IMG/VR virus record: IMGVR_UViG_3300044716_000068
Length of the DNA stretch: 64,000 nucleotides
Direction: 5' to 3' (one strand)
DNA from: a virus
Shown one piece after another: positions 7,901 to 49,164 of this stretch (position 1 is its first letter; every line of letters begins with the position of its first letter). Made by a program: the position numbers and the translations under genes. Below the pieces are notes generated by a model. It ran no database searches. It was not told where the DNA came from and saw nothing but the letters and a program-made list of their open reading frames with translations.

Positions 7901-10900
7901 AATGACATACAGTTGCTCACTGTATTAGAAAATCCACCTACCGCTGAAGAATATCTTGAAGATGCAGTGTTACCATATCCACTTCCTATGAATGAACTAG
8001 TCGCTGTAACTGTATTCCTATCTCCACCTGCTATTGTTGCAAAGTTTCCACAAGCTACGTTTGTGCATCCACCTCCTACAGCAGCATATACTGCTGAAGC
8101 AACATTACCTTGACCTCCACCTATAAAACTACAAGCTCCTGATGCTGTGTTTGATATACCTCCTGCAACTGTTGAGTTTGCTCCTGAAGCACAGTTACTT
8201 GTTCCTCCTCCTATAGTGGAACGATTACCTGATGCTCTATTTATGTAACCACCTGATATTGTAGAATATGTATTTGAAGCACTATTATTATAACCTCCAC
8301 CTACAAACGCTCTTGGACTTATAGCACAGTTATCACTACCTCCTACAACTGCAGACCAAGCACCTGTTGCAGTATTTGCTTGACCACCTCCTACTGTTGA
8401 ACAGTTACCTGATGCAGTGTTACCTTGACCACCTCCAATAAATGACATATTTGCTGAAGCTGAATTACCACTACCCCCTCCAATAAAAGAATTTGAATTT
8501 TGTGTTGTATTAGAAAGACCTCCTGCTATAGCAGAATATGTACCCACTGAAGCATTAGCTGAACCACTTAAAGAACCACTATATGCTCCTGAAGAAGTAT
8601 TTGTTACACCACATCTTACTGAAGAACACAATCCTGCTCCAAGCACAATAACAGCACTAGAACCAACATTTATACCTGAGCTTCCTGAACTACCACTTGT
8701 ACCTGACGTACCACTGGTGCCAGAAGTTCCACTTGTTCCTGAGCTACCACTGGTTCCTGTTGTACCACTAGACCCACTAGAGCCTGTTGTACCAGAGGTT
8801 CCTGTTGTACCAGACGTACCACTGGTAGCTGATGTACCACTAGAGCCTGAAGTACCTGTGGTACCTGACGTACCACCTGTACCATTGGTTCCACTTGTAC
8901 CACTTGTACCTGTAGTTCCAGCTGTACCTGAGGTGCCATTAGATCCATTAAGACCTGATGTTCCTGAGGTACCTGTAGAACCTGAGGTTCCTGATGTGCC
9001 ATTGACACCACTACTGCCTGAGGAACCAGATGTTCCTGAAGATCCAGAAGTACCTGTGGTTCCAGAGGTTCCACTTGTACCACCTGTTCCATTAGTGCCA
9101 GACGTGCCACTAGAACCTGCTGAGCCACTAGAGCCAGAAGTTCCTGTTGTGCCACTTGTTCCACTTGTTGCAGACGTACCACTAGATCCACTTGTACCTG
9201 TAGTACCACTAGTTCCAGAAGAGCCAGTCGTACCACTAGTACCACTTGTTCCTCCTGTTCCATTAGTTCCACTTGTACCTGATGTTCCTGTGGTACCAGA
9301 TGTACCATTTATTCCTGAAGATCCTGAAGATCCTGATGTTCCTGTTGTTCCTGAAGTACCTGAGGTTCCTCCAGATCCATTGGTACCTGACGTACCACTA
9401 GTTCCTGTAGTTCCACTTGTTCCTGTTGTACCGCTACTACCACTGCTGCCAGAAGTGCCAGAAGTACCTGAAGAACCATCACCTCCTGATGCACCATCAA
9501 GATTTACTATCCATGATGTATAAGTACCACTACCTACTGTTCTAGTAGGTGCTGCGAATGATAAAGATCCTGTTGCTGGGTTATATGAAATTACCTCACA
9601 CTCTTGGAAGTTGTTTGCATCATAAACCACAATGATTGATTGGGCCACTGTATAAGCCAATCCTAATCCTACAATGATTGTCCCAGCATTGCCTAATGTA
9701 AAAGTAGAAGATGATGTTGTTGCATATCTATCTCCTTGTAATCCTGAGGTACCACTCGTACCACTTGTCCCAGTTGTTCCTGATGTACCAGCTGTACCAC
9801 TAGAGCCTGCACTACCACTAGAACCACTTGTTCCTGTTGTTCCACTTGTTCCAGAAGTTCCTGTAGTTCCAGAAGTTCCTGTAGTACCACTAGATCCTGA
9901 GGTGCCTGTAGTGCCACTTGTTCCACTAGTACCTCCAGTACCATCTGTTGCAGATGTTCCTGAACTTCCTGATGTTCCAGAAGTACCACTAGTACCTGTA
10001 GTGCCTGATGTACCAGCACTACCACTTGTTCCACTAGTTCCACTTGTTCCTGTTGTACCTGAAGAGCCAGAAGACCCTGTTGTTCCTGAGGTGCCAGAAG
10101 TACCTCCTGTACCATCAGTTCCACTTGTTCCACTGGTTCCTGCAGTACCAGATGTTCCAGATGTTCCAGAAGTTCCACTTGTTCCTCCTGTACCATCAGT
10201 ACCTGAAGTTCCACTTGTACCACTTGAACCTGCTGTTCCACTAGATCCTGCTGTTCCACTAGTACCACTAGTACCAGTTGTACCAGAGGTTCCCCCTGTT
10301 CCATCTGTACCACTAGTTCCTGACGTTCCTGTTGTACCTGCTGTACCACTTGATCCTGAGGTTCCTGAACTGCCACTGGTTCCTGTAGTACCTGAAGTGC
10401 CACTGGTACCTGCTGTACCTGATGTACCTGTTGTACCAGCAGTTCCTGAACTGCCAGATGTACCAGAGCTACCTGAAGTTCCTGTGGTTCCACTTGTACC
10501 AGATGTGCCATCTGTACCTGAAGTACCTGATGTAGCACTTGTACCTGATGAACCTGAGCTTCCAGAAGTACCTGTTGTACCACTTGTGCCAGTTGTACCA
10601 CTAGTCCCTGATGTACCATCAGTACCACTTGTTGCAGAAGTACCATCTGTTCCACTTGTACCAGATGTACCAGTAGTTCCAGAAGTGCCAGAGGTTCCTG
10701 AAGTACCATCAATACCTGAAGTACCAGAGGTACCACCTGTAGCTGTGAAGTTTGCAATAGTACCATCACCTCGTATATATTGAGCTGCTGATCCTGTTGC
10801 TACAACGTTTATAGTTCCTGAAGAAGTTATAGGGGGTGTTGTAATGCTGAATGCTGGAGGCATGGCAAGTTGTACACTTGTCACTGTTCCTACAGACCAA

Positions 10901-11721
10901 CTTCTATTTGCTGATAAGTTTTGTGTTAAACCATTGATGCTCAACGTTCTAGTTGTAGGCACTGGTGTATATCCTAATGCAGATATAATATCTCCTTGTG
11001 TAACAGGAGTGGCAGACGTCACAAGACCTTTGCCATTCACAGCCACCTTTAAAAAGGTGTTGCTTCCATAGACATTAGGATTGACTGTCTGTAATGTAAG
11101 AGTTGTAGGAGAACCTGTCATACCAGTTCCTGTTACATCACCAACAATAATGATGACACCAGAAGGAACAGCAATGTTTACAGGAGTGATGTTAGTCACT
11201 AATCCTTTTGTGTTCACTGTTACTACTGGAACCTGTGTAGTGGAACCATATGTTCCTGGGTTAGGATTAACACTAGCCAATGTAAGGACAGCAGAGCCTG
11301 GGCCACTAGCTGTACCATCTCCTGTTAGTGCTGTGATATAAGGACCTGATGGTTGGTATGATGTATTATCTAAGCTACCATCCCCTTTGACAAAGTCAGA
11401 AGAGGTTCCACCTGTTGTTATTAATGCTGCAGACTCAATTGAATCTGTAATCTTGAATGTATAGCCATTACTAAGAATGACTGTGTTCTGGGTTAAGCTA
11501 CCGCCTAGCTTCACTGGTTGACCAGGAGCTGACTGTATAATTCCATTTTGGAATATATACCCAAGACCAGCATCTCCAAACTTTGCGTCTATTTTTTGTA
11601 GAGCTGTCTGAAGATTATCATTAGTGTTGATGCCAGTGTATATTAAATTCTCACCTTCATAGAATACGCAGGTGGCATTTAGTATGACTGGACATGGTTC
11701 TGCTGAACAAGATACATCCAT
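1993..11721 (-). CDS. giant tail fibre (3242 aa): N-terminal adaptor, Ig-like modules, two collagen-like blocks, ~130 x 15-residue beta-roll-like repeats, C-terminal S74 intramolecular chaperone
   Basis: N-terminal domain YTGINTNDNLQTALQKIDAKF is shared with the 87-aa and 394-aa proteins. Two ~65-aa repeated modules (GTYGSTTQVPVVTVNTKGLVTNITPV / NVYGSNTFLKVAVNGKGLVTSATPV) are Ig-like. Long Gly-X-Y runs (GTSGTSGTDGTSG...) follow. A long array of [FST][IV]GGGxxNxASGxxS repeats comes next. The C-terminus SDCRRKNTIQDTCFGLDDIVKLRPVSYCW...YGFIAQEV matches the Peptidase_S74 / endosialidase chaperone domain. Confidence 0.9.
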   Translation of the reverse strand: MDVSCSAEPCPVILNATCVFYEGENLIYTGINTNDNLQTALQKIDAKFGDAGLGYIFQNGIIQSAPGQPVKLGGSLTQNTVILSNGYTFKITDSIESAALITTGGTSSDFVKGDGSLDNTSYQPSGPYITALTGDGTASGPGSAVLTLASVNPNPGTYGSTTQVPVVTVNTKGLVTNITPVNIAVPSGVIIIVGDVTGTGMTGSPTTLTLQTVNPNVYGSNTFLKVAVNGKGLVTSATPVTQGDIISALGYTPVPTTRTLSINGLTQNLSANRSWSVGTVTSVQLAMPPAFSITTPPITSSGTINVVATGSAAQYIRGDGTIANFTATGGTSGTSGIDGTSGTSGTSGTTGTSGTSGTDGTSATSGTDGTSGTSGTTGTSGTTGTSGSSGSSGTSATSGTSGTDGTSGTSGTTGTSGSSGTSGSSGTAGTTGTSGTAGTSGTSGTTGTSGSSGTSGSSGTAGTTGTSGTSGTDGTGGTSGTTGTSGTSGTAGSSGTAGSSGTSGTSGTDGTGGTSGTSGTSGTSGTAGTSGTSGTDGTGGTSGTSGTTGSSGSSGTTGTSGTSGTSGSAGTSGTTGTSGTSGTSGSSGTSATDGTGGTSGTSGTTGTSGSSGTTGTSGTTGTSGTSGTTGTSGSSGSAGSSGTAGTSGTTGTSGTSGTSGLQGDRYATTSSSTFTLGNAGTIIVGLGLAYTVAQSIIVVYDANNFQECEVISYNPATGSLSFAAPTRTVGSGTYTSWIVNLDGASGGDGSSGTSGTSGSSGSSGTTGTSGTTGTSGTSGTNGSGGTSGTSGTTGTSGSSGSSGINGTSGTTGTSGTSGTNGTGGTSGTSGTTGSSGTSGTTGTSGSSGTSATSGTSGTTGTSGSSGSAGSSGTSGTNGTGGTSGTSGTTGTSGSSGTSGSSGSSGVNGTSGTSGSTGTSGTSGLNGSNGTSGTAGTTGTSGTSGTNGTGGTSGTTGTSGSSGTSATSGTSGTTGTSGTTGSSGSSGTTGTSGSSGTSGTSGTSGTSGTSGSSGSSGINVGSSAVIVLGAGLCSSVRCGVTNTSSGAYSGSLSGSANASVGTYSAIAGGLSNTTQNSNSFIGGGSGNSASANMSFIGGGQGNTASGNCSTVGGGQANTATGAWSAVVGGSDNCAISPRAFVGGGYNNSASNTYSTISGGYINRASGNRSTIGGGTSNCASGANSTVAGGISNTASGACSFIGGGQGNVASAVYAAVGGGCTNVACGNFATIAGGDRNTVTATSSFIGSGYGNTASSRYSSAVGGFSNTVSNCMSFLGGGRGHTVSGCYSFIGGGYANVASAIESTIVGGGVNYAGGIYSFVGAGLCNIICSPTSSCLVLGATIAGGIGNNTTSGTWSLAACDFTVAPTKCVAGQYSFIGGGFQNRAAGEHSTASGGYKNCAIANQSTVGGGNVNKATGNASVVAGGYNGTASGNYSSIGGGFNNVASGAFASVAGGRANTSSGACSFAGAGCANTASGVYSVVAGGELNLATNARAFVGAGLQNCATGDMSGIASGCNNVSLGSHSFIGSGKLNSSSGACAAIGGGQSNNASGAHSFIGGGQNNTASSYRAAVAGGCGNTASSGYSFVGSGRANTSSGYQGTIGGGLGNIASGSRSFIGSGNSNTASGGHSIVGGGANNTASNACSVVLGGGCNIASGDLSIIGGGFGNSAPKPYASILSGYFNTNSASYSTISGGYQNFICSVSTAFGNGFAAIGGGSSNYICGAKVCAVTIAGGVGGNTTGGTWNGQRFNVAPTICTAGDFSFIGGGFQNRATNTFATIVGGCLNTASGTWSFIGGGRSNVSNGADSIVAGGASNTASGYRGFIGGGFGNTASGNCSVVGGGASNTSSNGQSTVGGGRGNSASGYLATIAGGYINTVSACYSTIAGGFSNTSSGGFSTVGGGQANLASAAHSTVSGGRANTANGNCAFVGGGCANVSGSGYSVVVGGELNQAVNTRAFVGGGLFNCATGSHSSVVGGQYVKATGTFSSAGGGCLNTASGNCSVIAGGFSHTANNGGTTISGGISNTASGACSTVGGGTTNAASGTNAAVLGGNSNTASGSQAFVGAGISNTASGYDSVVAGGLSNGATNSYATVSGGYGNSASATWSTVSGGKYNVATFSHSTVSGGESNQASAVHSFVGGGRANIASGACSFIGGGQGNCTTAVYSTVGGGYTNTASHNYSTVGGGYINSIATSSYAGTISGGYRNYMLASNGTIGGGICNWMCSAANASSGSTIAGGVGNNTSGGTWNIAGYFSVAPTTFYAAGLLSTIGGGLQNRATGACSIVGGGSGNTANCTSSTIAGGNQNATSNTYTFIGGGAANSASGYMSVVAGGFNSSASGTDSSVGGGRTNTASGTNSHIGGGLSNTASGTRSTLGGGQGNIASGNCSFIGGGCAHTASNNYSIVVGGEGNQSTGVHSFVGGGVFNCATGTRSTAVGGHNSRAIADWASVLGGLNNTANAVYSSIGGGIGNTATAGYARVGGGSFNTASGNESNVGGGASNLSSANCSTVAGGNLNKVVIGSFGFIGGGNSNCICGTGNNLGVYSVIGGGSANLINGAYGITIAGGTGGTASSYYSTVSGGRNNASTNSGSTVGGGKINTSSSNYTTVAGGISNSASGGCAFIGAGGNNIASGNASVVSGGASNTSSGYRSVVGGGSSNVATGAYSTTGGGYNNRTCQNSSTISGGYSNLIQATDATIGGGRSNTVSSAYGSYATIGGGLGNTVSASASVVAGGCGNNASGNCATIGGGNANTASVGHATVSGGQLNIASSGHSVVGGALQNTASGGCSGTFSGRYNVASGGWSFVGGGYTNTANFYRSSVVGGSNNTSSCYFAFIGGGNSNISSSYSSVVGGGSSNTASAYRSTVGGGISNTATGACSFVGGGQANISSGVWSTTVGGSDNCATSPRAFVGGGYNNSSSGAYSTVSGGYVNRATGGRSFVGGGTSNCASGLHSAIGGGCGNIVSGVFSTIGGGRGNNVVGACATVAGGDGNVGSGACTSIGGGYANIGSGVGSTVSGGYGNGGNGNYSVAGGGFVNNAFGAHSVAGGGSTNFVGSDCSIIVGGYCNCVNCFSPWSTILGGTYNCSNSTTNSHIIGSCIPGVANNYTFVNNLCQWGGGISDCRRKNTIQDTCFGLDDIVKLRPVSYCWNGDTSCHKKYGFIAQEVQQVMSCVVETNPLSRVDENGLEVIVEQGGSPILQFEKDAIYASYVNAFKELKAENDNLKDEIKMIKNILKNNNLI
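1996..2358 (-). other. Peptidase S74 / intramolecular chaperone autoproteolytic domain of the mega-fibre (predicted self-cleavage before SDCRRKN)
   Basis: SDxRxKxNI...L.PV.Y.W......YGFIAQEV matches the conserved signature of phage tail-spike/endosialidase C-terminal IMC domains. The domain is followed by a coiled-coil-like KELKAENDNLKDEIKMIKNILKNNNLI. Confidence 0.8.
2480..8690 (-). repeat. ~130 tandem 45-bp (15-codon) repeats encoding [FST][IV]GGGxxNxASGxxS beta-roll/YadA-head-like units, interrupted by three ~55-aa Cys/Trp modules
   Basis: GGG recurs every 15 residues throughout this part of the 3242-aa ORF. Three modules carrying the GGTW signature lie near nt 4975, 6490 and 7660, with consensus IAGG.GNNT.GGTW...VAPT.C.AG..SFIGGGFQNRA. 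Their exact extents were not delimited. Confidence 0.7.
8690..9480 (-). repeat. collagen-like Gly-X-Y block 2 of the fibre (9-bp periodic DNA repeats)
   Basis: GSSGTSGSSGSSGTTGTSGTTG... repeats. Plus-strand mirror ORFs (PEVPLVP...) in the ORF track come from the same periodicity. Confidence 0.75.
9705..10737 (-). repeat. collagen-like Gly-X-Y block 1 of the fibre
   Basis: About 345 residues of GTSGTSGTDGTSGTSGTTG... starting near aa 329. It is separated from block 2 by a ~90-aa globular insert (LQGDRYATTSSSTFTLGNAGTIIVGLGLAYTVAQSIIVVYDANNFQECEVISYNPATGSLSF). Confidence 0.75.
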
Positions 11722-37734: not shown

Positions 37735-40700
37735 TTACGATGTTGCTGCAGCTGTACCAGCTAAATTACATTGTGGTGCTGCAGTAGTTGTTGTTGTTGT
37801 GGTGGTTGTAGGTGTAGAAGTTGTAGTTGTAGTAGTTGTGGGAGTAGAAGTTGTTGTAGATGTAGTAGTAGTTGTTGTACTTGTACTTGTACTTGTGGTT
37901 GTAGTAGTTGTATACTCTTCATTAATTGCTGTTCCTTCTAATGCACATACATTTACTGCTGTACCAGACAAGTTACAATAATAAATTACTGTTGTTGTAG
38001 TGGTAGTGGTAGGAGAAGGAATCTCTGTAACAGCTATTGCTGAGATATCACAACTTTCATTTAATCCAGAATAGAAGAAATTGTTTTCCCCTATGTAGAA
38101 GTTAGGCAGGTATGTATGGAAACTCACCCAGCTTTTAGTATTGAAGTTAAATGAAGCAGTCCATGATTTATTACAGAAGTATTCTAAGTCTGTTACAGCT
38201 ACAAATCTTTTTACTGATGTATTACCAGCAGTTGGTTGATTTACATAAAACTCTTTAGCCACATCATCATAGAATATTTCCTTACCTGGTTGAGGTATAT
38301 AGTCTAACTTAGTAATAATTACTCTATCAAACTTGCTATCAAACACACCATGTAAACCAATATTCTTGAAGTTGTTATCTATATCAACATTTGGGAAGTA
38401 TCTTAATATTTCAAATGATAAATGGTCTGTAAAGAATCTGTTTAGACCAGAGCCAAAGCCTGATATATCTGTTGCTTGGGTACCAGTGATTAAGAATATT
38501 TGTCCTCTCTTGGCATCCACAGTCACCTGACCTTGTGGTATTCTAAGCAACATTTTGTTTTGACATCCTACATAACCAAGATCTGTTTCAGCAAAGTCAA
38601 TAGGGGGTGCATTACCAAATAACTCACCACCTCCTAAATATGCAGATTGAGGATTGCTTGTATCTATTGTTAACAAGTTATTGTATAACAATGTCTTATT
38701 CTCAAATCTAGCTAATGTTGCTCTGTTCTGTATACCATCTAGTGATACTAAGTTACCATAGTTTTGAGGGAAGTCAAAGAAGCTTGCTGGACGATATATC
38801 AACCAGCTATTTATTCTATTATCAGAATAGCTTTCTTGTCTGTCAGAGTATATTGCTCTAAATGGAAAATATGTGTAACATAATTGTTGCACCCAATCTG
38901 TAGGCAAATGAGAGAAGAAGTTCTCTACGTTTTGTTTAGTGAATGTTGTATTGTAGTAGTACGTATTGTCAAATGCAATAGGTACTCTGTTCTCTTGGAA
39001 CCATTGGTCAGGAATACCTGAACTCACGTGTGGATAGTAATCACCTTCTAAGTTATTAAATGCTTGACGTAAGTCTACATTAATAGAAGACTCTACATAA
39101 TAATAAGGAACTCCATAAGCAAATAGATACATCTTACCATCATAAACATAATTAAATGTTCCTGGTGCAGTGGTACCAATAGGAGGAGTTGTAGATGTAG
39201 TGGTTGTACTAGTTGATGTATTATCTACAATGTCATCATTAGGACAGTCAAGGTAATGAGCTTTCACTGATATGATGTTCTTCATTAATGTAGATCCTAC
39301 ATAATAGTCATACAATACAGATCTTGCTGAGTACCAGTATTCTGGATAGGCTATATTACCTATCTCATCATAATAGATATCACTATCATCAGGAGCCTTA
39401 ACTCTATTATCAATAAAGAATGGAAGCTTAGTTTTGAAACCAAACTTGCTAATAAATGTGTCACCACCAAATACCACTTCAACACCACTTGCTGGTAGAG
39501 AATTAAATATTCTCTGAAATCCTGTATCAATAGTTTGATAGGAATATATCTGTCCCCACTGTCCATTGTTGATTGTCTTGATTGAACCATAATATGAAAC
39601 AACCTTTATATCTTGTTGAAATTCAGGAGTTCCACAGTTCCCTGATTCTCCAAGTGTAAATCTAGAATTATCAGAGATTTGACTTACACCTGCTACAACA
39701 AGGTTTGGTGTTTTGTTAGGATATGGTAACGCTGGTACAGGTCCCACTCCAGTTCTTGTTTCAATACTTTTGGTATATACTGATGATTCTCTGTTCCAGT
39801 TATTAAGATCATAATCATCTCCCACAGATTGAACACCTGGGAATACATATTGAGATCTATCAAGTTGTCTTTGTTTAATACCTAGCGTACCAGTTAAAGG
39901 ATTAGTAGCAGAATTCTGTATAGCTTCACTATAGTCATAGCTAGATATAGAATTAAAAGAATATGCAAAGTTTCTTCTACTAACTCCATTCACATATATC
40001 TGTAAGTAAGATTGATATGCTGTGAACATAGCAGTGGCATTGAATCCGCCTAGATCAGCAATTGCTCTACTAGAATTCAAGGCATCTATCTGTGCTTGTT
40101 TAGTAAGAAGCTTGTACATTGCGTGCTCCTTCACTTGTACAAAGTGAGCTCTACCAGCTCCAAATAATACACTCTCCAACTTAAGAACATTACCTAATGT
40201 AGGTTGTCCAAAAGAAGTTTCTGGTGAATTAAATACTTGTCTGTATGGTGACTCATTATTATTAAATCCATCTAACTGAGCAGGATAACATTCAGTATTT
40301 TTATTGTTATTATTAGCAACTATTGTGTATCCTGTGCAACCACTAACACGTACAGGAACAGTAGAAGAATTTACTGTAATTGACGTACCTTTTTGTACAG
40401 TGATATTTGTCAAAGATTGAGTGATAGGATCTGTATAGCTAAATGCAGGTGGACCACCAGCACAAGCAAGTGGAACAGTAATTGTGTAAGCTGTAGCTGT
40501 AACATTTGTAAATGTAGCAGCTCCACTATTTACAACAGGAAGTGTAATAGAACATATCTGAGTTGTTGCTGTTGTAAAAGCAAAAATTGCTGTCTGTCCA
40601 GTGTTGCAATCTGTATATTGTAAATTACCATTAATAGTTGCTGTCACTTTGAATGTATCACATTGAGAATTGTATGCGTTGCTTTTCTCAAGTAAGAAAG

Positions 40701-42615
40701 GATCTTCGTTAAGATCATTATAAGGATAGTTTGGATAGTAGTAAGGAGTTCCTTCTCTATCATATTTACCCACGTTTCTAAGGATGCCCTTAGCAATAAT
40801 AGATTTATTTGTACTTCTATTACCTCTCACTATCTTAAATCCAACAATAGAGGCTTTCTCTGCAGCTGTTAAACTAGATGCTTGGATGAGAAATATTACT
40901 TGTTGTACATCTATCTTTACACCAATTGGATATACAGCACTAGCTGATTGCATTGTTGGTTGTATCTGTCCACCAGAATATATAATAGGAGCACTCTCAA
41001 AGTGAGGACTTACAAGTACATCAGGAAATTTATGATGTCTAATTGGTTCATTAGCAAGGTCTCCCCATACATCCACATTACATGGATACAGATCTGTAGA
41101 TTCCCAATATGCAAAGTCTCCAGATTGATATGGATATGCATCTCCTATCTTTTCAGCATCTGTTGTAGGAACAGGATATGTAGCTGTTACACTAGCTGTA
41201 TTATATATTTTCCAATAAGGAGCACTAGTTCCTTCTCCAATAAAGTCATTGTTAGTATTTGGTACAACAATTAAATCATTAGATGTTGATGCTCTACCAG
41301 GAATATGGAAACCATCTGTTTGTTTACCATTGTCTAATAAAAAGACTATCTCAAATGCATATACCTCATCTCTTAAATAACCTCTAAGATTGGCAGTGTA
41401 GAAGCCATCAGCATACGTATTGTTAGCTGGTAGCTTATATGTCTCCCATTGAAGTTGAATTTGATTAGCAATACCTTGATAGTTAATTCTATCAATAGAT
41501 GTGAGGTTATCCCATACAATAACATCCTGTACGTTTGTAACATCTTGAGCAATATCATAATAAGCAAACTTCTCAAGTATGTCATTAAGACTCAAAGGAA
41601 TTTGAGTTATGTTCTGACCTGTATAAGTGATTGTTCTAGACTTATCTTGTATGTTGTAAGTTCCTACAAGTTCTACAGTGGTGCCATTATTTATTGTTTT
41701 AATGACAGCCAAGTTAAAGTATTGGAAGTATCCTGTAATATCTATGTCACTGATACTCAACACAATAGAGTTTCCTACAGAGTATTGAAAGTCAGGTGTT
41801 GTTATCTCTGTGTTTGCAATAGATACAGGATTAGTAATTGAGTAGTATGATGTATATGCATCTCCTGATGCATTACAATATTGAATAGCAAATTGATAAG
41901 CTCCTGCTTTTAAATCTCCACCTACAACAATATCAGTAACATCTAAGTTAGGAATTGTGAAGTTAGGTTGCACCTTTAACTTATTACAGTCTAACGTTGC
42001 TTCAATATCTGGATCACAATTTTGATCACCTGTAAATATGGTGATATATGGAATTGAATCAATATTAATATATCTTCTTGGATTAAGACCATCTGTCCAA
42101 TAGACCTCAGTGGTACAGTTGGTAATCTTATGTACAGCTTTATGAATAGGATAGTTGATGTCAAAGTTCAAACATGGAGAATTTGCACAAACTGTTAATT
42201 CTGTATCAGGGATTGGAGTACATAATAAATGATATACACAGTCATTGTTATTCATATACCCTATCTCACTTCCTCCTGTTTCAGGATTAGCTAAGAAGAA
42301 GATGTGTTTATTTTTCTCTTGAATGAAGTGTGTACCAATAAGTTGGTAGCCTTCAGGGAAATCTAAACAAGCTTCATTTGAAGGTTCATTCTGATAGTTT
42401 ACAGAATTAGAGTCAAAGTTCTCTAATGCTGCGTTTAGGGCATAAGAAAGTTTCCCCTTCTGTATTTGATTTACAGAAGAGTCCATGTCTAGTCCCACTC
42501 TACCAAGATTAAATTCTTGTCTTACACTAGAGGTGCCTTGATTATCTGTTCCATCCATGTCCATATCTTGAGCTTCTGTTTGGTAATTCATATTGTGCAA
42601 AACGTTGTAAGTCAT
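37735..42615 (-). CDS. large tail protein (1626 aa), putative receptor-binding/tail-spike protein with C-terminal ~55-residue poly-Thr/Ser tract
   Basis: The ORF ends ...EEYTTTTTTSTSTSTTTTTTSTTTSTPTTTTTTTSTPTTTTTTTTTAAPQCNLAGTAAATS and has an internal TSTSTTTTSTTPP linker. Its 5-prime end overlaps the upstream 328-aa gene. Confidence 0.5.
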   Translation of the reverse strand: MTYNVLHNMNYQTEAQDMDMDGTDNQGTSSVRQEFNLGRVGLDMDSSVNQIQKGKLSYALNAALENFDSNSVNYQNEPSNEACLDFPEGYQLIGTHFIQEKNKHIFFLANPETGGSEIGYMNNNDCVYHLLCTPIPDTELTVCANSPCLNFDINYPIHKAVHKITNCTTEVYWTDGLNPRRYINIDSIPYITIFTGDQNCDPDIEATLDCNKLKVQPNFTIPNLDVTDIVVGGDLKAGAYQFAIQYCNASGDAYTSYYSITNPVSIANTEITTPDFQYSVGNSIVLSISDIDITGYFQYFNLAVIKTINNGTTVELVGTYNIQDKSRTITYTGQNITQIPLSLNDILEKFAYYDIAQDVTNVQDVIVWDNLTSIDRINYQGIANQIQLQWETYKLPANNTYADGFYTANLRGYLRDEVYAFEIVFLLDNGKQTDGFHIPGRASTSNDLIVVPNTNNDFIGEGTSAPYWKIYNTASVTATYPVPTTDAEKIGDAYPYQSGDFAYWESTDLYPCNVDVWGDLANEPIRHHKFPDVLVSPHFESAPIIYSGGQIQPTMQSASAVYPIGVKIDVQQVIFLIQASSLTAAEKASIVGFKIVRGNRSTNKSIIAKGILRNVGKYDREGTPYYYPNYPYNDLNEDPFLLEKSNAYNSQCDTFKVTATINGNLQYTDCNTGQTAIFAFTTATTQICSITLPVVNSGAATFTNVTATAYTITVPLACAGGPPAFSYTDPITQSLTNITVQKGTSITVNSSTVPVRVSGCTGYTIVANNNNKNTECYPAQLDGFNNNESPYRQVFNSPETSFGQPTLGNVLKLESVLFGAGRAHFVQVKEHAMYKLLTKQAQIDALNSSRAIADLGGFNATAMFTAYQSYLQIYVNGVSRRNFAYSFNSISSYDYSEAIQNSATNPLTGTLGIKQRQLDRSQYVFPGVQSVGDDYDLNNWNRESSVYTKSIETRTGVGPVPALPYPNKTPNLVVAGVSQISDNSRFTLGESGNCGTPEFQQDIKVVSYYGSIKTINNGQWGQIYSYQTIDTGFQRIFNSLPASGVEVVFGGDTFISKFGFKTKLPFFIDNRVKAPDDSDIYYDEIGNIAYPEYWYSARSVLYDYYVGSTLMKNIISVKAHYLDCPNDDIVDNTSTSTTTTSTTPPIGTTAPGTFNYVYDGKMYLFAYGVPYYYVESSINVDLRQAFNNLEGDYYPHVSSGIPDQWFQENRVPIAFDNTYYYNTTFTKQNVENFFSHLPTDWVQQLCYTYFPFRAIYSDRQESYSDNRINSWLIYRPASFFDFPQNYGNLVSLDGIQNRATLARFENKTLLYNNLLTIDTSNPQSAYLGGGELFGNAPPIDFAETDLGYVGCQNKMLLRIPQGQVTVDAKRGQIFLITGTQATDISGFGSGLNRFFTDHLSFEILRYFPNVDIDNNFKNIGLHGVFDSKFDRVIITKLDYIPQPGKEIFYDDVAKEFYVNQPTAGNTSVKRFVAVTDLEYFCNKSWTASFNFNTKSWVSFHTYLPNFYIGENNFFYSGLNESCDISAIAVTEIPSPTTTTTTTVIYYCNLSGTAVNVCALEGTAINEEYTTTTTTSTSTSTTTTTTSTTTSTPTTTTTTTSTPTTTTTTTTTAAPQCNLAGTAAATS

Positions 42616-43528
42616 TTCTTACACGTCTTTGCTTAGTCCATGCATCCTGTTTCTTAATCTCAATCATTGCCATTATAAAAGCCTCATCATGTAATGCTTT
42701 ATAGTAAATTAGCTTCTGTTGTATTTGTTGGAATGTTTCATCAGTTAGCTGATTAGACAATGTTTCAAACACTTTATATTTGAGGAATGCCTCAACAAAC
42801 TCTCTAATACGATAGTTGTCTGGAATCATTTGATTACCAACACAATCATACTCTGTAGCATAGAATATTAAATGCACCACTCCATTTCTGAAGTTGGTAA
42901 CAAACTTATTATCTCTAATATCAAAGCTATCATAACCAGCAGATCCTGGAGTAAATTCTCTAATAGGAGGAGCAGTTTGATAAAACTCCCAAGCATTTGT
43001 ATAAGTTACATCACAGTTTTGTCTTGCAGAAATGTTACCTGGTTTTAATAAGTATTCATGTGTGAAAGCTCTTGTTCCTTGTTGATTAGTTTTATATACA
43101 GCAGGAATGATTACAGGTAGACAACTACCATCACATTGAGGATTGATACAACCATGATCATGTTGACAATCTACGCAAGGAGTACCACCCACTGTTACAG
43201 GAGTTACCTGTATTGTGGTTTGTGAAACTGCTTGAGAGTAGAATGAATTGGCTGTTTGATATGGATAGCCAGCTGTTGATGTACACATCCAAGCTTCTCT
43301 TACAGCGTAAAAGTTATCTGGGAGTCTAGCTTCAAAGTCTTCTACATATAACACCTCTTCACTAATAACATAAGTTGCCCTACCTAACTTCTTAAGACAT
43401 TTGTCTAAGTAGGTGGGAAACAATAAATCATCCACTGCTCCTGTGTCAAAATAAGACTTTAACTCTTCCTTAACAGTTGAATAAACTGGATCAGGAGAGA
43501 CAAAGTTATACTTGTAATAATATGACAT
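42542..43528 (-). CDS. hypothetical structural protein (328 aa), Cys-rich segment GTPCVDCQHDHGCINPQCDGSC
   Basis: Intact ORF in the tail gene neighbourhood. Function unknown. Confidence 0.4.
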   Translation of the reverse strand: MSYYYKYNFVSPDPVYSTVKEELKSYFDTGAVDDLLFPTYLDKCLKKLGRATYVISEEVLYVEDFEARLPDNFYAVREAWMCTSTAGYPYQTANSFYSQAVSQTTIQVTPVTVGGTPCVDCQHDHGCINPQCDGSCLPVIIPAVYKTNQQGTRAFTHEYLLKPGNISARQNCDVTYTNAWEFYQTAPPIREFTPGSAGYDSFDIRDNKFVTNFRNGVVHLIFYATEYDCVGNQMIPDNYRIREFVEAFLKYKVFETLSNQLTDETFQQIQQKLIYYKALHDEAFIMAMIEIKKQDAWTKQRRVRNDLQRFAQYELPNRSSRYGHGWNR

Positions 43529-43534
43529 GTTATT

Positions 43535-44011
43535 TTATTTTTTCCACTCACAGTAAATGTTTTGGTATTTACTGTCAGTTTTTATGTAATGGGATAGTAA
43601 TCTAGATGTTGTACGAGAGGGCTTGAAATACCAGAGGTCTATGTTTCTTATTCTTGTAGATTCTTTGAACCACATCCAACCAAAGAAAAACCCTTCTGTA
43701 TGATAGTTGAAATTGTATATGCGTTTACCTTTCTCCTTAGTTTTTTTCCAATCTATAGGTAAGTTAACTACTTCTTTACCATCAACAGTTTTTAGTTTTC
43801 TCCTTTTCTTTTTGTTGATGGAAAACTCTCCAAAGCCAAAAGGAAGTCTTGCTTTCTCTCCTGTTTCTAGAATGTAGTTTTTAAAATACTCATTGTATGA
43901 GTATATGATATTCTTCCACTGATCAAATGTAATTTTTAAAGTGGGATTCTTATTGCAAAAATTATTGTAGTTTTCTTTACTAGAACTTCTCCAATCTATC
44001 TTTGTACGCAT
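43535..44011 (-). CDS. IHF/HU-like DNA-binding protein (158 aa)
   Basis: LPFGFGEFSINKKKRRKLKTVDGKEVVNLPIDWKK matches the HU/IHF arm signature GFGxF...R.GRNP.TGE.I.I.A. Lys-rich. Confidence 0.65.
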   Translation of the reverse strand: MRTKIDWRSSSKENYNNFCNKNPTLKITFDQWKNIIYSYNEYFKNYILETGEKARLPFGFGEFSINKKKRRKLKTVDGKEVVNLPIDWKKTKEKGKRIYNFNYHTEGFFFGWMWFKESTRIRNIDLWYFKPSRTTSRLLSHYIKTDSKYQNIYCEWKK

Positions 44012-44745
44012 TAGTTGCTTGGTTTTACAGCATTTGGTGCCTGCCCATCTGCACCATCGTCAGATATATCTGTTTTAAGTCTAAAGTAAGTAGATAACAA
44101 CTTTTGAGAAGTGAGCTCTAACACTTGCTTCTCTAAATATCCAGGACATCCATATTCCTTATCTAAAGGATTCATACAGACTTCTTCTATAGGATATACT
44201 ATACTACCACAGCCACACTCAGGGAACATTATTTCATTAGGTACATCTTCTTCAAAGAAAGCAGATATTCTTGTTGCCTTTAATAATGGATTGTTAATAT
44301 ATAAATAGCCACCATTAGCTATCCAATAGTATTGTTCATTCTTTATAATAGGAAGTTTCAATAAGTTTAAATACCTATTGATTGTAATCTCTTTAAATCT
44401 TTTACCTTGACCACCCATAGCGTTGATAGAATATACACCCTGAATTACATATTGATAGTTTCCTTCAGATATGCGAGGAAGTTTATATCTGCTTCTTGCT
44501 ACATTGCATGGATCTACAAATTCACAACATTCAGAAATAGGAACCTCTACCATCTCTAAACAAGGGATGGTAGTAAATAAAGTATCAGTGGCCCAAAGCT
44601 TTCTAAGATTTGTTTCACGCTTAACCAATAACTGTGTGTTGTTCTTAATCTCAGATGCCACCACCCTATCAGTGATAAGGTTATCTGTGGATAGCAACTT
44701 GTGCATTCCACGTACATCTGAAACTAATTTCCTTAATGTTGCCAT
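44011..44745 (-). CDS. hypothetical protein (244 aa)
   Basis: Intact ORF with 1-nt overlaps to both neighbours. No motif recognised. Confidence 0.4.
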   Translation of the reverse strand: MATLRKLVSDVRGMHKLLSTDNLITDRVVASEIKNNTQLLVKRETNLRKLWATDTLFTTIPCLEMVEVPISECCEFVDPCNVARSRYKLPRISEGNYQYVIQGVYSINAMGGQGKRFKEITINRYLNLLKLPIIKNEQYYWIANGGYLYINNPLLKATRISAFFEEDVPNEIMFPECGCGSIVYPIEEVCMNPLDKEYGCPGYLEKQVLELTSQKLLSTYFRLKTDISDDGADGQAPNAVKPSN

Positions 44746-45995
44746 TATAAATACTGTTTGAATATATTTGTCATTCCATCAGTCTCATCTATCAAGAATG
44801 CTGTCACTTCTGCTTTAGACATTACGTGACCATTCTTATCATCCCAAAGACTCTTTGCATTTGAGAATGCTGGAATTTGGTAAAATTTAATACCATTAAA
44901 ATCATGACTCACCTCGTGGTGTTTGTCTCCTGTAAATATATAGAAGTTATCATAATCAGACCAGTTGTTCTTAAACTCAATTGGAAATATACCAGCAAGC
45001 TTTACAGGCTTAATAGCATCTCCATGGTTAAACATCATTGCTGTATTACCATATCCTATGTATTTTCTATATTTAGGGCTGATGTTAAAGTCAGCTCTTT
45101 CTTCTTTTCTAAAATACGTTTGTAACCAATTAACCATATGCCATCCTACAAACTCATCATGATTACCAGCTACATACACTACGTTAACATTTTTAGCATA
45201 TTGTAATAACATTGTAATTACAAGTATTTCATGATTACATATCTTAAGAAATCCTTCATGATATGTACCTATATTAGTTTGAGGAGTTCCTTTTGTAGTG
45301 TTGTTAGTATGCTCACTGTTAAACTCATCTGAACCAATTATGTAAGTGATGTGATCTAGATTGTTAGATAGTTGAGCTTGAGTTAAAATAAGTTCTGTTT
45401 TAAACATCATTCTAGCAAACCTTTCTTCTATATCATTATTTCCATCTATGTCAAACTTATTCAAATGTGAGTCTTGTTTATTAATAACTAAACAAGCATG
45501 TTGCTTAGTTGGAACAAACTTAGGACTTATAACTGCTTGACTTACAGGCTCATATGAAGCTAAAAAGTCTACAAAACTATCTTGAAAAACTTGCTCTGTA
45601 GACTTCTTTCCTAACCATGCTTTGACTTGCCAATGAGGATTTCCACCATTCCCCCAGAAGTTTTGTACATATTTAGTTATTTCCCATTTCTCTGTATCTA
45701 TCTTACACTTATTAATTAACTCATCTAAGCTCTTTACTTCTTCGCTAAAATTAGCTACCACCTCTCCTGTACCCTTTACAAGGTCTTCTGTAAACTTAAC
45801 AACCCTATCTTCTAAGTCTGTTATATAGTTTCCAATCTCTGCATTTTCTTGAGCCACCTCTTCATTTCTTAGTTCTTTTAGTAAATCATCAACCTCTAAT
45901 TCTGTAATTCCAAGCTTATCAGCGTAGAACTTCTTGCTCTTTTTCCAATGTAGAATGTCTTCTAACTGTTGTAGTAAGGATTGGTTTTCAGGCAT
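44745..45995 (-). CDS. calcineurin-like metallophosphoesterase (416 aa)
   Basis: Motifs VYVAGNHDEF (GNH[DE]), NHGDAIKP and FTGDKHHEVSHD (GD/GHxH-like) lie in the C-terminal half. They match the metallophosphoesterase motif III/IV/V pattern. Confidence 0.55.
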   Translation of the reverse strand: MPENQSLLQQLEDILHWKKSKKFYADKLGITELEVDDLLKELRNEEVAQENAEIGNYITDLEDRVVKFTEDLVKGTGEVVANFSEEVKSLDELINKCKIDTEKWEITKYVQNFWGNGGNPHWQVKAWLGKKSTEQVFQDSFVDFLASYEPVSQAVISPKFVPTKQHACLVINKQDSHLNKFDIDGNNDIEERFARMMFKTELILTQAQLSNNLDHITYIIGSDEFNSEHTNNTTKGTPQTNIGTYHEGFLKICNHEILVITMLLQYAKNVNVVYVAGNHDEFVGWHMVNWLQTYFRKEERADFNISPKYRKYIGYGNTAMMFNHGDAIKPVKLAGIFPIEFKNNWSDYDNFYIFTGDKHHEVSHDFNGIKFYQIPAFSNAKSLWDDKNGHVMSKAEVTAFLIDETDGMTNIFKQYL

Positions 45996-46189: not shown

Positions 46190-46738
46190 TTAACAGCTTA
46201 CATAGTTTGTAAGTTCTCCATTAACATCTACTTCCACTGCATAATCAGTACCACTTCTGGTTAATTTTCTCCATCCCACTGAACCAACAAATGGTGTTGT
46301 CAAACTTGGACTATCATAGAAAATCATTGTTACAATAGGAACAGTATATCCAGGTAAAGCATAAACAAGACTTGTTGTAGTTGAACCACTACAAGCACTA
46401 GCAGAACTACCTGTAGCTGAGTTATCAATTGTATATTCCACAGGTCCTGCTACAGTAGTTGTTGTAGTTGTTGTACTAGTACTAGTAGATGTGGTAGATG
46501 TAGTTGTTGTGGTGGTTCCTCCAGAAATAAGCATGTCAAGAGAGTTGGTACATGTTGCCAAAGAGGTCACTCTAATAATAGTAGCTCCATCAGGTACACC
46601 TGTTAGGGTGTATCCTGCTTGTAAGGCTGCTTTTGATATACCAGAAGCTAAGGGTGTAGTGTATCCATCTGCATCTGAATAGATGTCAAATGGGCCTGTA
46701 TCTGCCCCAGCTAGGGTTAATGTTACTAAGACTGTCAT
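46190..46738 (-). CDS. hypothetical tail-fibre-associated protein (182 aa) with GPF N-domain and poly-Thr/Ser linker
   Basis: N-domain is homologous to the 289-aa protein. It is followed by GGTTTTTTSTTSTSTSTTTTTTTVAGP and a C-terminal globular part. Confidence 0.45.
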   Translation of the reverse strand: MTVLVTLTLAGADTGPFDIYSDADGYTTPLASGISKAALQAGYTLTGVPDGATIIRVTSLATCTNSLDMLISGGTTTTTTSTTSTSTSTTTTTTTVAGPVEYTIDNSATGSSASACSGSTTTSLVYALPGYTVPIVTMIFYDSPSLTTPFVGSVGWRKLTRSGTDYAVEVDVNGELTNYVSC

Positions 46739-46760: not shown

Positions 46761-47024
46761 TTATGGACATTGATTCAATAAATTACAAAGAGCAGTTTGT
46801 AATTGTACACTATTTCCAATAGCAGTTAAGATTGTTTGGGCTAATAGTGTTGGATCTAAATCAGCGTCTATCTTTTGGAGAGCCACTGTTAAGTTATCAT
46901 TTGTTTCTATACCTGTATTAGGAAGATTAGGGCCTGTGTATTTTATATTGTTTGTACCAATACAATATACAGGACCTGCAGTTTGTCCTTCTGGGGTATA
47001 ACATGGATTATAAATATTAACCAT
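46761..47024 (-). CDS. small protein (87 aa) consisting of the shared tail-fibre N-terminal adaptor domain
   Basis: YTGPNLPNTGIETNDNLTVALQKIDADL aligns with YTGINTNDNLQTALQKIDAKF of the mega-fibre and with the 394-aa protein N-region. Confidence 0.45.
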   Translation of the reverse strand: MVNIYNPCYTPEGQTAGPVYCIGTNNIKYTGPNLPNTGIETNDNLTVALQKIDADLDPTLLAQTILTAIGNSVQLQTALCNLLNQCP

Positions 47025-47033
47025 TTTTTTCTA

Positions 47034-48218
47034 TTAAGGGATGTACATTATATAATATGCAGCAATTACAGGTTGTATGTTTAAATGAGCTCCATCATTA
47101 CCTGTAGGGTCAACTGTTATAGCCACATTATTAGGAGCATTGGAAGTCACTGTAATTCCAGTGGTAGCTGTTGTTGTTTGAACATTAAAAGGGCTTCTGT
47201 TTACAATACCAATATTACCAGCACTATCCCAACCTTCTGGTGAATTGCCAAGATAATGACTATGACCAGGGTCGTTCAATGTAACAGTTGCTGTACCTAA
47301 AGCATTGTGTGAGTGGGCTGGCAATTGTGAAGGAATAAGCACTATTGTATTTGCTCCTGCTGTACCAGATAAAGCATAGTTAGGGTTGCCAGCAAAAGCA
47401 GGATTAACAGCAGCATCAAGACCAATTCCTACAGGAGGTACACTAGCAATAGCTCCTACAGCAACACGTCCTCTTTTATCAGGAGTGCCATTTAAGCCAT
47501 TGCATAGATACACCTTGTTGAAACCATTTGCTGGAATACCAGCACCTGTTCCATCAAAGTCAGTCAATGACCCATAATATTCATATGCTACAAAAGGAAC
47601 CATCTTTGAAGACTGCTGGGTAGAACCACCTGCTTGACTAGCTAAATAAGCAGCAATTAAAGCATCTAGGTCTGCAAGCTTAACATAGTTTGTATCTAAG
47701 TCTAAAGTAAGAGCAGCTAAGTTAGCTTCAACTATACAAAGCTTTGTTATAACAGCTTGTAATACAGCATGTGTATCACTAGAGTCTGTTACACCACTTA
47801 GACAGTCTACATCATAATCAGCATTCAATATAGCAATTTCAGCTTCTACAGCATCAACTTGTACTTGTAAATCACAAGCAGCTCTTACTAAAGCAGACAA
47901 CACCTCAACTAAGTTAGGTGTTCCTACTGGTAAGTATTGATCTACTAGTTCACAATAATAAGCAGGATTGATAGTTATGTCAATACCTGTTCCATCTAAG
48001 AAGGAAACAACAGTATCAATTAATATATTCTCTACAGTGAGCAATGAGTCTCCTGTTGTAATACCCAATGCTTCAGAGCCAATACCTGTATATCTAACAC
48101 ATTGATCAGATACAATCTCTACACAGCCATTATAACAGGCATCACAAGGTCTTATTGTTGTACTGGTAGAAGTGGTACTTGTAGTAGTAGTAGTAGTAGT
48201 AGTGGTATCTTCTGGCAT
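47034..48218 (-). CDS. tail fibre protein (394 aa): poly-Thr N-terminus, shared adaptor domain, phage tail collar domain, HxH-containing distal tip
   Basis: The N-terminus is MPEDTTTTTTTTTSTTSTSTT. CDACYNGCVEIVSDQCVRYTGIGSEALGITTGDSLLTVENIL is the shared adaptor. VYLCNGLNGTPDKRGRVAVG matches the tail collar (LCNGQ...LPDLRGR) motif. LPAHSHNALGTATV...DPGHSHYLG are HxH motifs as found in T4-type fibre tips. Confidence 0.65.
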   Translation of the reverse strand: MPEDTTTTTTTTTSTTSTSTTIRPCDACYNGCVEIVSDQCVRYTGIGSEALGITTGDSLLTVENILIDTVVSFLDGTGIDITINPAYYCELVDQYLPVGTPNLVEVLSALVRAACDLQVQVDAVEAEIAILNADYDVDCLSGVTDSSDTHAVLQAVITKLCIVEANLAALTLDLDTNYVKLADLDALIAAYLASQAGGSTQQSSKMVPFVAYEYYGSLTDFDGTGAGIPANGFNKVYLCNGLNGTPDKRGRVAVGAIASVPPVGIGLDAAVNPAFAGNPNYALSGTAGANTIVLIPSQLPAHSHNALGTATVTLNDPGHSHYLGNSPEGWDSAGNIGIVNRSPFNVQTTTATTGITVTSNAPNNVAITVDPTGNDGAHLNIQPVIAAYYIMYIP

Positions 48219-48226
48219 TTTATAAT

Positions 48227-48550
48227 TTATTTATGAATTAAAATTTTAACTCTACTAGCTATTCTTTGTACAGAGAAATGGTTGGCATAGTCTGGATTAC
48301 AATACTTGTATGTTAGTATTCTTTTGTAATTCAACAACTCACCAATTGGACTACACGCAAGGCTATAGTTCATAGAGAATATGATATTGTTATATTGAAT
48401 CTTAGCTAACTCAGTTAGCTTATAGTCAATATCTTGAAGCAAGACAGGGATGCTTGCACATTCTATACAGTTAGTTAATCTTGGCTGCAACATATTTAAT
48501 AAGGTTTGTAGCTTGTTTAACAGCAGCATTGCATGCTGAACATAAGCCAT
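48227..48550 (-). CDS. hypothetical protein (107 aa)
   Basis: ORF only. Confidence 0.35.
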   Translation of the reverse strand: MAYVQHAMLLLNKLQTLLNMLQPRLTNCIECASIPVLLQDIDYKLTELAKIQYNNIIFSMNYSLACSPIGELLNYKRILTYKYCNPDYANHFSVQRIASRVKILIHK

Positions 48551-48606
48551 TAATCAATTGACATCCACAACCAAATTTAGCTCCACAGTTTCTACAGTTT
48601 GCCATA

Positions 48607-49164
48607 TTAATAAAAGTTAATGATGTAATTATTTCCAGAACAACCACAGTTGCTCCTAATAAAATTGTTTAACATATTATTTGCTTGCATATAAAGCTTA
48701 TTAGCAGTATCTATAGCACAGTTGTTTGCAGCAGCTATTGAACCTGATATCATATAATAGATGCTAGTCAATGCCACTTTTGATTGTGTTTTGATAGCAA
48801 GATCACATTCCATTAAATCAAGTTTCATAAAAGCATTATCAAACTTCTCTTGTATAAGCTCAGTACGCATGATGTTTCTTTCTACATGATACGTAATAGC
48901 AGGTGCCACTGTATACCTTAGATAGTATATACCATCTGGTAGAGGAATTAATGGTTCACCTACAAGACTAAGTCCTAAAGATGTAGAATTGAATATATTA
49001 AAGTCATTTGGAACAAATGGTAAAGATACCACTCCAAAATTGGGTACTGTTATTTCTATTGTAGGGGAGCTCACAACAGGAGGATCTGTGTCATATGTTG
49101 AAGCGTCAGCAATACCTAGTGTTAAGGTATTGTAAGTTGGTATTACCAATATATCTAAGACCAT
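48607..49164 (-). CDS. hypothetical structural protein (185 aa)
   Basis: ORF only. Confidence 0.35.
   Translation of the reverse strand: MVLDILVIPTYNTLTLGIADASTYDTDPPVVSSPTIEITVPNFGVVSLPFVPNDFNIFNSTSLGLSLVGEPLIPLPDGIYYLRYTVAPAITYHVERNIMRTELIQEKFDNAFMKLDLMECDLAIKTQSKVALTSIYYMISGSIAAANNCAIDTANKLYMQANNMLNNFIRSNCGCSGNNYIINFY

Follow-up and report, generated by a model that had tools for sequence, protein, structure and literature searches.

The stretch of viral DNA considered here (IMG/VR virus record IMGVR_UViG_3300044716_000068; 64,000 nucleotides, referred to in its entirety as the window) is, judged from its sequence, the structural-gene block of an uncultured crAss-like phage, and all genes of the window lie on the minus strand. 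Three open reading frames (ORFs), present on this strand as in the preliminary description of the window, start with versions of one short cysteine-containing segment, hereafter the module: a giant fibre gene encoding 3242 amino acids (aa) at 1993..11721 (the mega-fibre), a 394-aa fibre gene at 47034..48218, and an 87-aa ORF directly downstream of the latter at 46761..47024. The module is ~45 residues long and consists of one invariant and several variable Cys, a Y-x-G ... G-I-x-T-x-D-x-L turn and then a helix. It occupies aa 5-48 of the mega-fibre (11578..11709), where it reads C-SAEP-C-PVILNAT-C-VFYEGENLIYTGINTNDNLQTALQKIDAKF, aa 8-56 of the 87-aa protein (46857..47003) and, in a diverged form that reads C-DA-C-YNG-C-VEIVSDQ-C-VRYTGIGSEALGITTGDSLLTVENILID, aa 25-75 of the 394-aa fibre (47994..48146).

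The motif that the preliminary description had placed at all three N-termini was recovered in two of them, as a six-frame search with the regular expression '[DN]NL..AL.KID' gave matches in the mega-fibre and the 87-aa protein only, whereas the corresponding region of the 394-aa fibre holds a diverged version, C-V-R-Y-T-G-IGSEA-L-G-I-T-T-G-D-S-L-L-T-V-E-N-I-L-I-D. Pairwise comparison by BLASTP with compositional adjustment aligned the 87-aa protein with the mega-fibre at E 3e-9 (19/30 residues identical), and the 394-aa fibre with the 87-aa protein and the mega-fibre at the marginal values of E 0.031 and E 0.049, respectively, in the same register. A hidden Markov model (HMM) of mega-fibre N-termini only, searched against the 755 six-frame ORFs of the window, ranked the mega-fibre (E 4.7e-34) above the 87-aa protein (E 9.6e-12) and the 394-aa fibre (E 0.03), and an HMM of the combined module matched the mega-fibre at E 1.3e-27; with these two models exactly three copies and no further ones were found among these ORFs. 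Profiles were then compared with hhalign, for which we used 8 clusters of the 87-aa protein, more than 70 orthologous mega-fibre-type N-termini and 107 relatives of the N-terminal region of the 394-aa fibre. The 394-aa profile aligned with that of the mega-fibre N-terminus at a probability of 93% (E 3.5e-7) and with that of the 87-aa family at 95.6% (E 1.1e-8), and the latter two aligned with each other at 98.5% (E 1.8e-15). When the columns of the 394-aa profile were shuffled 200 times, the scores were 10 +/- 2.4 with a maximum of 21, compared to observed scores of 35 and 45 that none of the 200 shuffles reached, and reversed profiles scored 7-10. Because the hhalign scores far exceed those of shuffled and reversed profiles, we regard the three N-terminal modules as homologous; the alignment of the N-regions that the preliminary description had called for thus yields a similarity that survives the control for composition.

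The register proposed in the preliminary description, which aligned the proteins on Y-T-G, was nine residues off for the mega-fibre: the YTG of the 87-aa and 394-aa proteins corresponds to YEG of the mega-fibre, and the YTGI of the mega-fibre to NTGI (87-aa) and ALGI (394-aa). In the correct register, C8, Y29, G31 and D43 (87-aa numbering) are invariant across 42 sequences, and V27 and G38 are nearly so. The cysteines that were described as a pair in front of the motif are present, but their number and spacing vary, with three in the mega-fibre, four in the 394-aa fibre, and two in the module plus two at the C-terminus of the 87-aa protein. The modules of the 87-aa protein and the mega-fibre are 63% identical as protein and 57% as DNA, and their third codon positions match at 9 of 30 sites, i.e., at random level, so the similarity appears to be old and maintained by selection. 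A recent duplication of, or gene conversion between, these two modules was considered and rejected, as synonymous sites are saturated.

In the 87-aa protein, the module gives way to the second, helical half of the anchor unit (aa 57-87, 46764..46856), which was delimited by alignment and by longer relatives, and the C-terminal end bears an invariant C80-x5-C86-P, directly after which the poly-Thr linker and distal domain of those relatives begin. The AlphaFold2 model has a mean predicted local distance difference test score (pLDDT) of 79, with 85-95 at residues 30-80, and shows short beta-bridges followed by helices at residues 45-55, 58-70 and 73-83; Foldseek returned 0 hits for it in the PDB. 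In 45 IMG/VR loci, the module is borne by the gene that directly follows the 394-like fibre gene, and we refer to the positions of the 394-like fibre and of this downstream gene as slots 1 and 2. Slot-2 proteins of relatives measure 87, 95-121, 212-221, 325-374, 628-639, 687, 1238-1484 and 1359 aa. Every version contains the whole 87-residue unit, to which the longer ones add a poly-Thr/Ser linker and an unrelated distal domain, and the window's 87-aa ORF, an anchor-only or 'headless' member of slot 2, stops exactly at the end of this unit. A 121-aa variant (P0007) was considered as a truncated fusion, an idea that we rejected because it is a complete gene made up of the stub and a poly-Thr tail.

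The stub form is conserved at 86-87 aa in 8 clusters and 24 IMG/VR loci, it recurs with 86-89 aa in three clusters (P0004, P0236 and P0327) whose divergence exceeds 50%, and its ratio of nonsynonymous to synonymous substitution rates (dN/dS) is 0.06-0.33. This low dN/dS, the constant length in diverged clusters and the invariant C-x5-C-P contradict the earlier suggestion of a fibre remnant in the sense of a decaying gene. The description of all three ORFs as receptor-binding proteins remains plausible for the mega-fibre and the 394-aa fibre, but not for the 87-aa protein, which is without any distal domain. Conservation thus identifies the 87-aa protein as a functional anchor-only protein, neither a receptor-binding protein nor a decaying remnant, and purifying selection keeps the anchor unit, which makes a separate structural role of the stub most likely.

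Beyond the window, a profile search with the module among 1.84 billion representatives retrieved 1235 proteins at E <= 1e-3 and 416 at E <= 1e-10. The module starts at or before residue 15 in 124 of 126 new representatives, which range in length from 74 to more than 2000 aa, and it is followed by distal parts of 0 to ~2000 aa that include DUF5122 beta-propeller, Gp10_C/collar, Peptidase_S74, collagen and PTL_trimer domains. Scans against Pfam and PHROG found no family for the module or the 87-aa protein. The module is, as far as profile searches define it, a large undescribed sequence family of at least 1235 clusters. Its membership has two features: a homologous N-terminal segment occurs in at least two fibre genes of one genome, and the same anchor is joined to unrelated distal domains across relatives. 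This position and modularity fit an attachment module with exchangeable distal parts.

The 394-aa fibre consists of a Thr/Ser leader, the module, ~130 aa of long helices and a C-terminal domain, probably of the collar type, with two HxH motifs. It matches the PHROG 8469 tail fibre family at E 3.9e-16, while its C-terminus reaches Pfam Gp10_C at E 0.038 and 15.4 bits only, below the cutoff of 27. In its AlphaFold2 model, pLDDT is 80-96 at residues 40-200 and poor (<55) in the collar-type part. The model matches a 368-aa 'phage tail collar domain-containing protein' of virus NIOZ-UU157 in BFVD (E 1.3e-17), and some relatives of the fibre carry the name 'microcystin-dependent protein'. Across the 107 proteins of its N-terminal family, which occur in forms of 221, 239 and 297-405 aa, ~180 N-terminal residues are constant and the C-termini are swapped. 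Among cultured phages, tblastn found no match for the N-terminal region, and the C-terminal half matches only Burkholderia phage tail fibres. Sequence searches of the PDB gave nothing for the protein even at permissive E (<= 1-10), and Foldseek searches of the PDB with the model gave only noise (E >5). The leader of ~22 residues in front of the module (48153-48218), MPEDTTTTTTTTTSTTSTSTT, differs in length among close relatives and is absent in others (L001 and L031). Poly-Thr tracts were also observed at the end of the 386-aa protein at the auxiliary-capsid position and between the domains of several fibre proteins. The model of the 394-aa fibre also weakly matches 108-aa and 1264-aa proteins of NIOZ-UU157, and the 368-, 108- and 1264-aa proteins may represent the same trio of fibre, stub and long fibre in a marine virus.

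The mega-fibre comprises the N-terminal module, a repeat region, collagen-like G-x-y tracts, long beta-helix-like repeats and a C-terminal S74 intramolecular chaperone. It matches PHROG tail-fibre families, Pfam Collagen (E 1.5e-7, 31.5 bits; cutoff 27.2) and Peptidase_S74 (PF13884; E 6.3e-9, 36.4 bits; gathering cutoff 22). A sequence search of the PDB with its N-terminus, at the same permissive E, found nothing. Long antisense and alternative-frame ORFs, e.g., at 9674-10783 (plus strand) and 9693-10769 (minus strand), lie within its collagen-like G-T-S repeats on both strands (8670-10783); they were rejected as genes, being artefacts of the repeat composition.

The tail context of these genes is a block at 37735..44745 with ring protein 2 at 44011-44745 (Pfam CrAss_Ring_2, E 5.1e-14), ring protein 1 at 42542-43528 (CrAss_Ring_1, E 2e-7), a 158-aa protein between the two, and an ORF at the muzzle-protein position at 37735-42615, named by synteny with crAss_MUZ genes of relatives. 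CrAss_Ring_3_4 matched a window protein at E 0.0018, below the Pfam cutoff. Precomputed Pfam matches to crAss_MUZ, Crass_capsid and P22_portal come from the syntenic genes of relatives only; these relatives encode 87-aa proteins 82-94% identical to that of the window. Their order of P22_portal, Crass_capsid, CrAss_Ring_2, CrAss_Ring_1 and crAss_MUZ is the gene order of the window, and the crAss-like assignment is made because of the ring 1 and ring 2 matches together with the capsid, portal and muzzle families of relatives in conserved order. When 8 kb of the window were compared with cultured phages by megablast, no match was obtained, and by its capsid protein only one cultured phage is related, Leptolyngbya phage Lbo-JY46, with 26% identity.

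The capsid and auxiliary-capsid genes are followed shortly by those of the 394-aa and 87-aa proteins. In transcription order, the interval reads: a 185-aa protein, a tiny Cys-rich ORF, an 88/107-aa protein, the 394-aa fibre, the 87-aa ORF, a 182-aa protein and a 416-aa exonuclease-like protein, so that the fibre genes are flanked by the genes at the hub position (185-aa and 88/107-aa) and by the ring 2, ring 1 and muzzle genes. The 185-aa protein (48607..49164) belongs to the 'virion structural protein' family PHROG 31752 (E 3.1e-8) and gave nothing in a sequence search of the PDB, again at permissive E; it occupies the position of THA (gp38) in ΦcrAss001 and is by synteny a candidate docking hub. 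The Cys-containing 88/107-aa protein (48227..48550) is without a family match and stands at the position of THB (gp39), which makes it, likewise by synteny, a candidate small hub subunit. In ΦcrAss001, THA and THB are encoded between the auxiliary capsid protein and ring 2, and the hub-position genes of the window resemble them in size and in this site.

On the other side of the stub lies the 182-aa protein (46190..46738), which is without the Cys module and falls into PHROG 21885, a family of unknown function. It consists of a conserved N-domain of ~75 aa ('MTVLVTLTLAG...'), a poly-Thr linker and a hypervariable C-domain, for which at least five unrelated types occur among relatives with near-identical N-domains. 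It is probably another variable protein of host interaction; it is also a candidate for an additional fibre or for a decoration protein, and may be a partner of the stub. An exchange of distal cassettes between slot-2 and 182-like proteins was looked for, and no BLASTP hits were obtained at E <= 1e-3.

The closest structural reference is ΦcrAss001, with 12 tail hubs that bear inner and outer assemblies of fibres; there, the trimeric fibre gp22 is held in the THA2-THB hub with its 26 N-terminal residues, and disulfides stabilise hubs and rings (Bayfield et al. 2023, PMC10172136). Like the window, ΦcrAss001 has ring 1, ring 2 and muzzle genes, and the fibre genes of the window adjoin its hub-position genes. 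The attachment that we propose resembles that of gp22, which binds through its extreme N-terminus on a tail that bears several fibre types, and the view of the preliminary description that the virion carries several different fibres agrees with the inner and outer fibre assemblies of ΦcrAss001 (PMC10172136). The two differ in that only gp22 contacts the hub in ΦcrAss001, with the other fibres hanging on gp22, whereas in the window three proteins carry the presumed docking end.

On balance, we favour, with some reserve, the interpretation that the module is the virion-attachment end of the fibres. The conserved N-terminal module would dock fibres, presumably trimeric, onto a fixed structural partner and leave the distal parts free for exchange, and its conserved residues would be under constraint from a partner that is either common to the fibres or paralogous. 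The analogy with ΦcrAss001 points to hubs for fibre docking, which would form a collar around tail rings 1 and 2, as the most likely partner, and docking would probably be locked by disulfide bonds of the module cysteines, as in that phage. The genome would offer at least three slots: slot 1 for the 394-aa fibre with its module, helical stalk and collar-type tip, slot 2 for the 87-aa protein, and slot 4 for the 3242-aa collagen-like fibre with its self-cleaving S74 chaperone. The virion would then carry several fibre types, i.e., the collar-tipped 394-aa fibre, the giant collagen-like fibre and the stub. The stub itself might either fill docking positions of its own and thus complete the hub collar, or serve as an adaptor for another protein, for which the adjacent variable 182-aa protein would be the obvious candidate.

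Several observations weigh against this interpretation or parts of it. The 22-residue Thr/Ser leader in front of the 394-aa module fits poorly with an N-terminus that would be buried in a pocket. No structural match for the module was found in the PDB and no family for it in Pfam or PHROG, so that its position and modularity are what speaks for an anchor function. For the switchable recognition raised in the preliminary description we have no evidence; no invertible or diversity-generating element was seen, although no search aimed at one was made. The gp22 of ΦcrAss001 is without the Cys module, and the combined HMM finds nothing in the structural region of that phage; similarly, a comparison of shared PHROG and Pfam families showed no detectable sequence similarity of the 185-aa and 107-aa proteins to THA and THB, and no docking partner was identified. 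For the stub as an adaptor of the 182-aa protein, co-occurrence is imperfect in both directions, as two loci (L041 and L044) have the stub without a 182-like gene and others (L032 and L047-L055) combine a full-length slot-2 fibre with a 182-like gene. What the sequences establish is the homology of the three modules, their N-terminal position and modularity, selection on the stub and the crAss-like context, while we infer where the fibres dock, the disulfides, the trimeric state and what the stub does.

An explanation that we consider improbable is that the module is a trimerisation or folding nucleus, i.e., an N-terminal cap that registers three chains for, e.g., a collagen triple helix or a coiled coil, and not the site of virion attachment. 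The module does stand directly before collagen-like or helical stalks in many members, its conserved Cys could form inter-chain disulfide knots as in collagen, and the lack of an identified docking partner is compatible with such a role. However, the stub consists of the module and a short helical bundle alone, with nothing to trimerise, and is nonetheless under purifying selection, and S74-bearing fibres already possess a folding nucleus at their C-terminus. The trimerisation and anchor roles are compatible rather than exclusive.

Still less probable is an attachment to the capsid instead of the tail, in which the module, at least that of the 87-aa protein, would anchor head fibres in hexon pockets. 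The 87-aa protein is comparable in size to gp21 (97 aa) and gp29 (122 aa), head fibres of ΦcrAss001 that bind via their N-terminal 38-58 residues and of which analogues are expected in other crassvirus groups (PMC10172136), and its gene, as that of the 394-aa fibre, is located just downstream of the capsid and auxiliary-capsid genes. It has no similarity to gp21 or gp29, however, the genes concerned lie between the hub-position and ring genes, and the same module is found on a 3242-aa S74 fibre and a collar-type tail fibre, for which dozens of copies per capsid are implausible.

We give a similarly low probability to the suggestion, made in the preliminary description, of a decoy, in which the stub would compete with full-length fibres for their docking sites and set the stoichiometry or block sites during assembly. 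A conserved protein that is a module without a distal part, and whose module is closer to that of the mega-fibre (63% identity) than either is to that of the 394-aa fibre, would suit such a function. Ordinary full-length fibres occupy this slot in relatives, however, and for this reason slot 2 probably has a docking position of its own instead of competing for that of another fibre. That the N-terminal resemblance of the 394-aa fibre is due to chance or composition, so that only two proteins would share the module, is very improbable: the pairwise E of only 0.03-0.05 and the mega-only HMM value of 0.03 would allow it, but the profile-profile comparisons (E 3.5e-7 and 1.1e-8) lie more than 10 standard deviations above column shuffles, the register is identical in all comparisons with invariant C, Y, G and D columns, and slot-1 and slot-2 genes both match the combined HMM in 40 of 45 IMG/VR loci and in Lbo-JY46.

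Lbo-JY46 (PP438436.1) offers a comparison in a very distant phage. The combined HMM, trained without this genome, matches the N-termini of three adjacent genes (proteins XAI97406-XAI97408) that encode proteins of 814 aa (E 1e-5), 669 aa (E 7e-5; annotated 'tail fiber protein') and 156 aa (E 8e-4). These genes (19587-24514, minus strand) lie downstream of a 174-aa protein, which shares PHROG 31752 with the 185-aa protein of the window, and of a 92-aa Cys-containing protein, and thereby mirror the arrangement of the window. They differ from it in being adjacent and not split over two loci, and in a short member of 156 aa. A literature search on Lbo-JY46, NIOZ-UU157 and the N-termini of crAss receptor-binding proteins returned nothing relevant.

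Shared N-terminal anchors on multiple receptor-binding proteins or depolymerases of one phage are known from Klebsiella phages of the ΦK64-1 type, from CBA120 (TSP1-4) and from G7C (gp63.1 and gp66). As in the window, a conserved N-terminal anchor there precedes a distal specificity domain that can be exchanged, and a genome encodes several proteins of this kind, but these systems belong to another lineage, use another anchor fold or family and are often branched, with one receptor-binding protein anchoring the next, whereas all three proteins of the window bear the module. In podophages of the K1-5, K1E and SP6 kind, which offer the closest precedent for the stub, a homologue of the N-terminal domain of T7 gp17 reportedly carries separate tailspikes. 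Like the stub, this adaptor is a short homologue of the attachment part of a fibre that is without the receptor-binding part and is retained structurally; the two show no sequence or fold relation, and the partnership of the stub with the 182-aa protein is that of a candidate with imperfect co-occurrence. The principle of a shared anchor with swapped tips is thus already well established in other phages. What appears to be new is the sequence family, which has no detectable relation to ΦcrAss001 gp22 or to the K1-5/SP6-like precedents.

CrAss-like phages are abundant, and a structural atlas exists only for ΦcrAss001, whose fibre attachment sequence is not conserved in environmental lineages. 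With the module as a sequence handle, genes for fibres and host recognition can be found both in this uncultured lineage and among cyanophages like Lbo-JY46. The module also marks the boundary between constant and exchangeable parts, which is useful for engineering and for predicting hosts, and the conserved anchor-only protein offers a compact and testable case of what the attachment end does alone. A more far-reaching possibility, which we regard as doubtful, is that the module is a common 'socket-plug' system of environmental crAss-like phages and the anchor-only 87-aa protein a functional device within it, either a filler or competitor that sets how many of the 12 hubs bear each fibre type or an adaptor for the 182-aa protein. 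If this were true, both occupancy and domain swapping would serve to tune the host range.

As for the host, a profile search of genome contigs with a narrower alignment located mega-fibre relatives on three contigs of metagenome-assembled genomes, two binned as Sediminibacterium (L057 and L058) and one in a 'Rubrivivax' bin (L059). The Sediminibacterium (Bacteroidota) binning of the two phage-sized contigs is a weak host hint, and the hints diverge between Bacteroidota bins and the cyanobacterial host of Lbo-JY46.

The tiny Cys-rich ORF between the two hub-position genes (48471-48647; 44-58 aa, 'MANCRNCGAKFGCGCQLINGLCSACN...') is conserved in two relatives (L001 and L003) and may encode a small virion component stabilised by disulfides or zinc. 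The 416-aa protein (44745-45995), whose gene stands between those of the fibres and that of ring 2 within the block of tail genes, matches PHROG 704 'DNA repair exonuclease' (E 1.6e-41) and shows the metallophosphoesterase motifs GNHD and GDKHH; its position, an odd place for a nuclease, is kept in all relatives. Upstream of the mega-fibre lie two giant ORFs (11869-28700) of 1704 and 3905 aa, the former of which gave no Pfam match; they presumably encode crAss-type cargo or virion RNA-polymerase-like proteins. In relatives L057-L060, an ORF of ~1650-1745 aa is always found directly before the module-bearing fibre.

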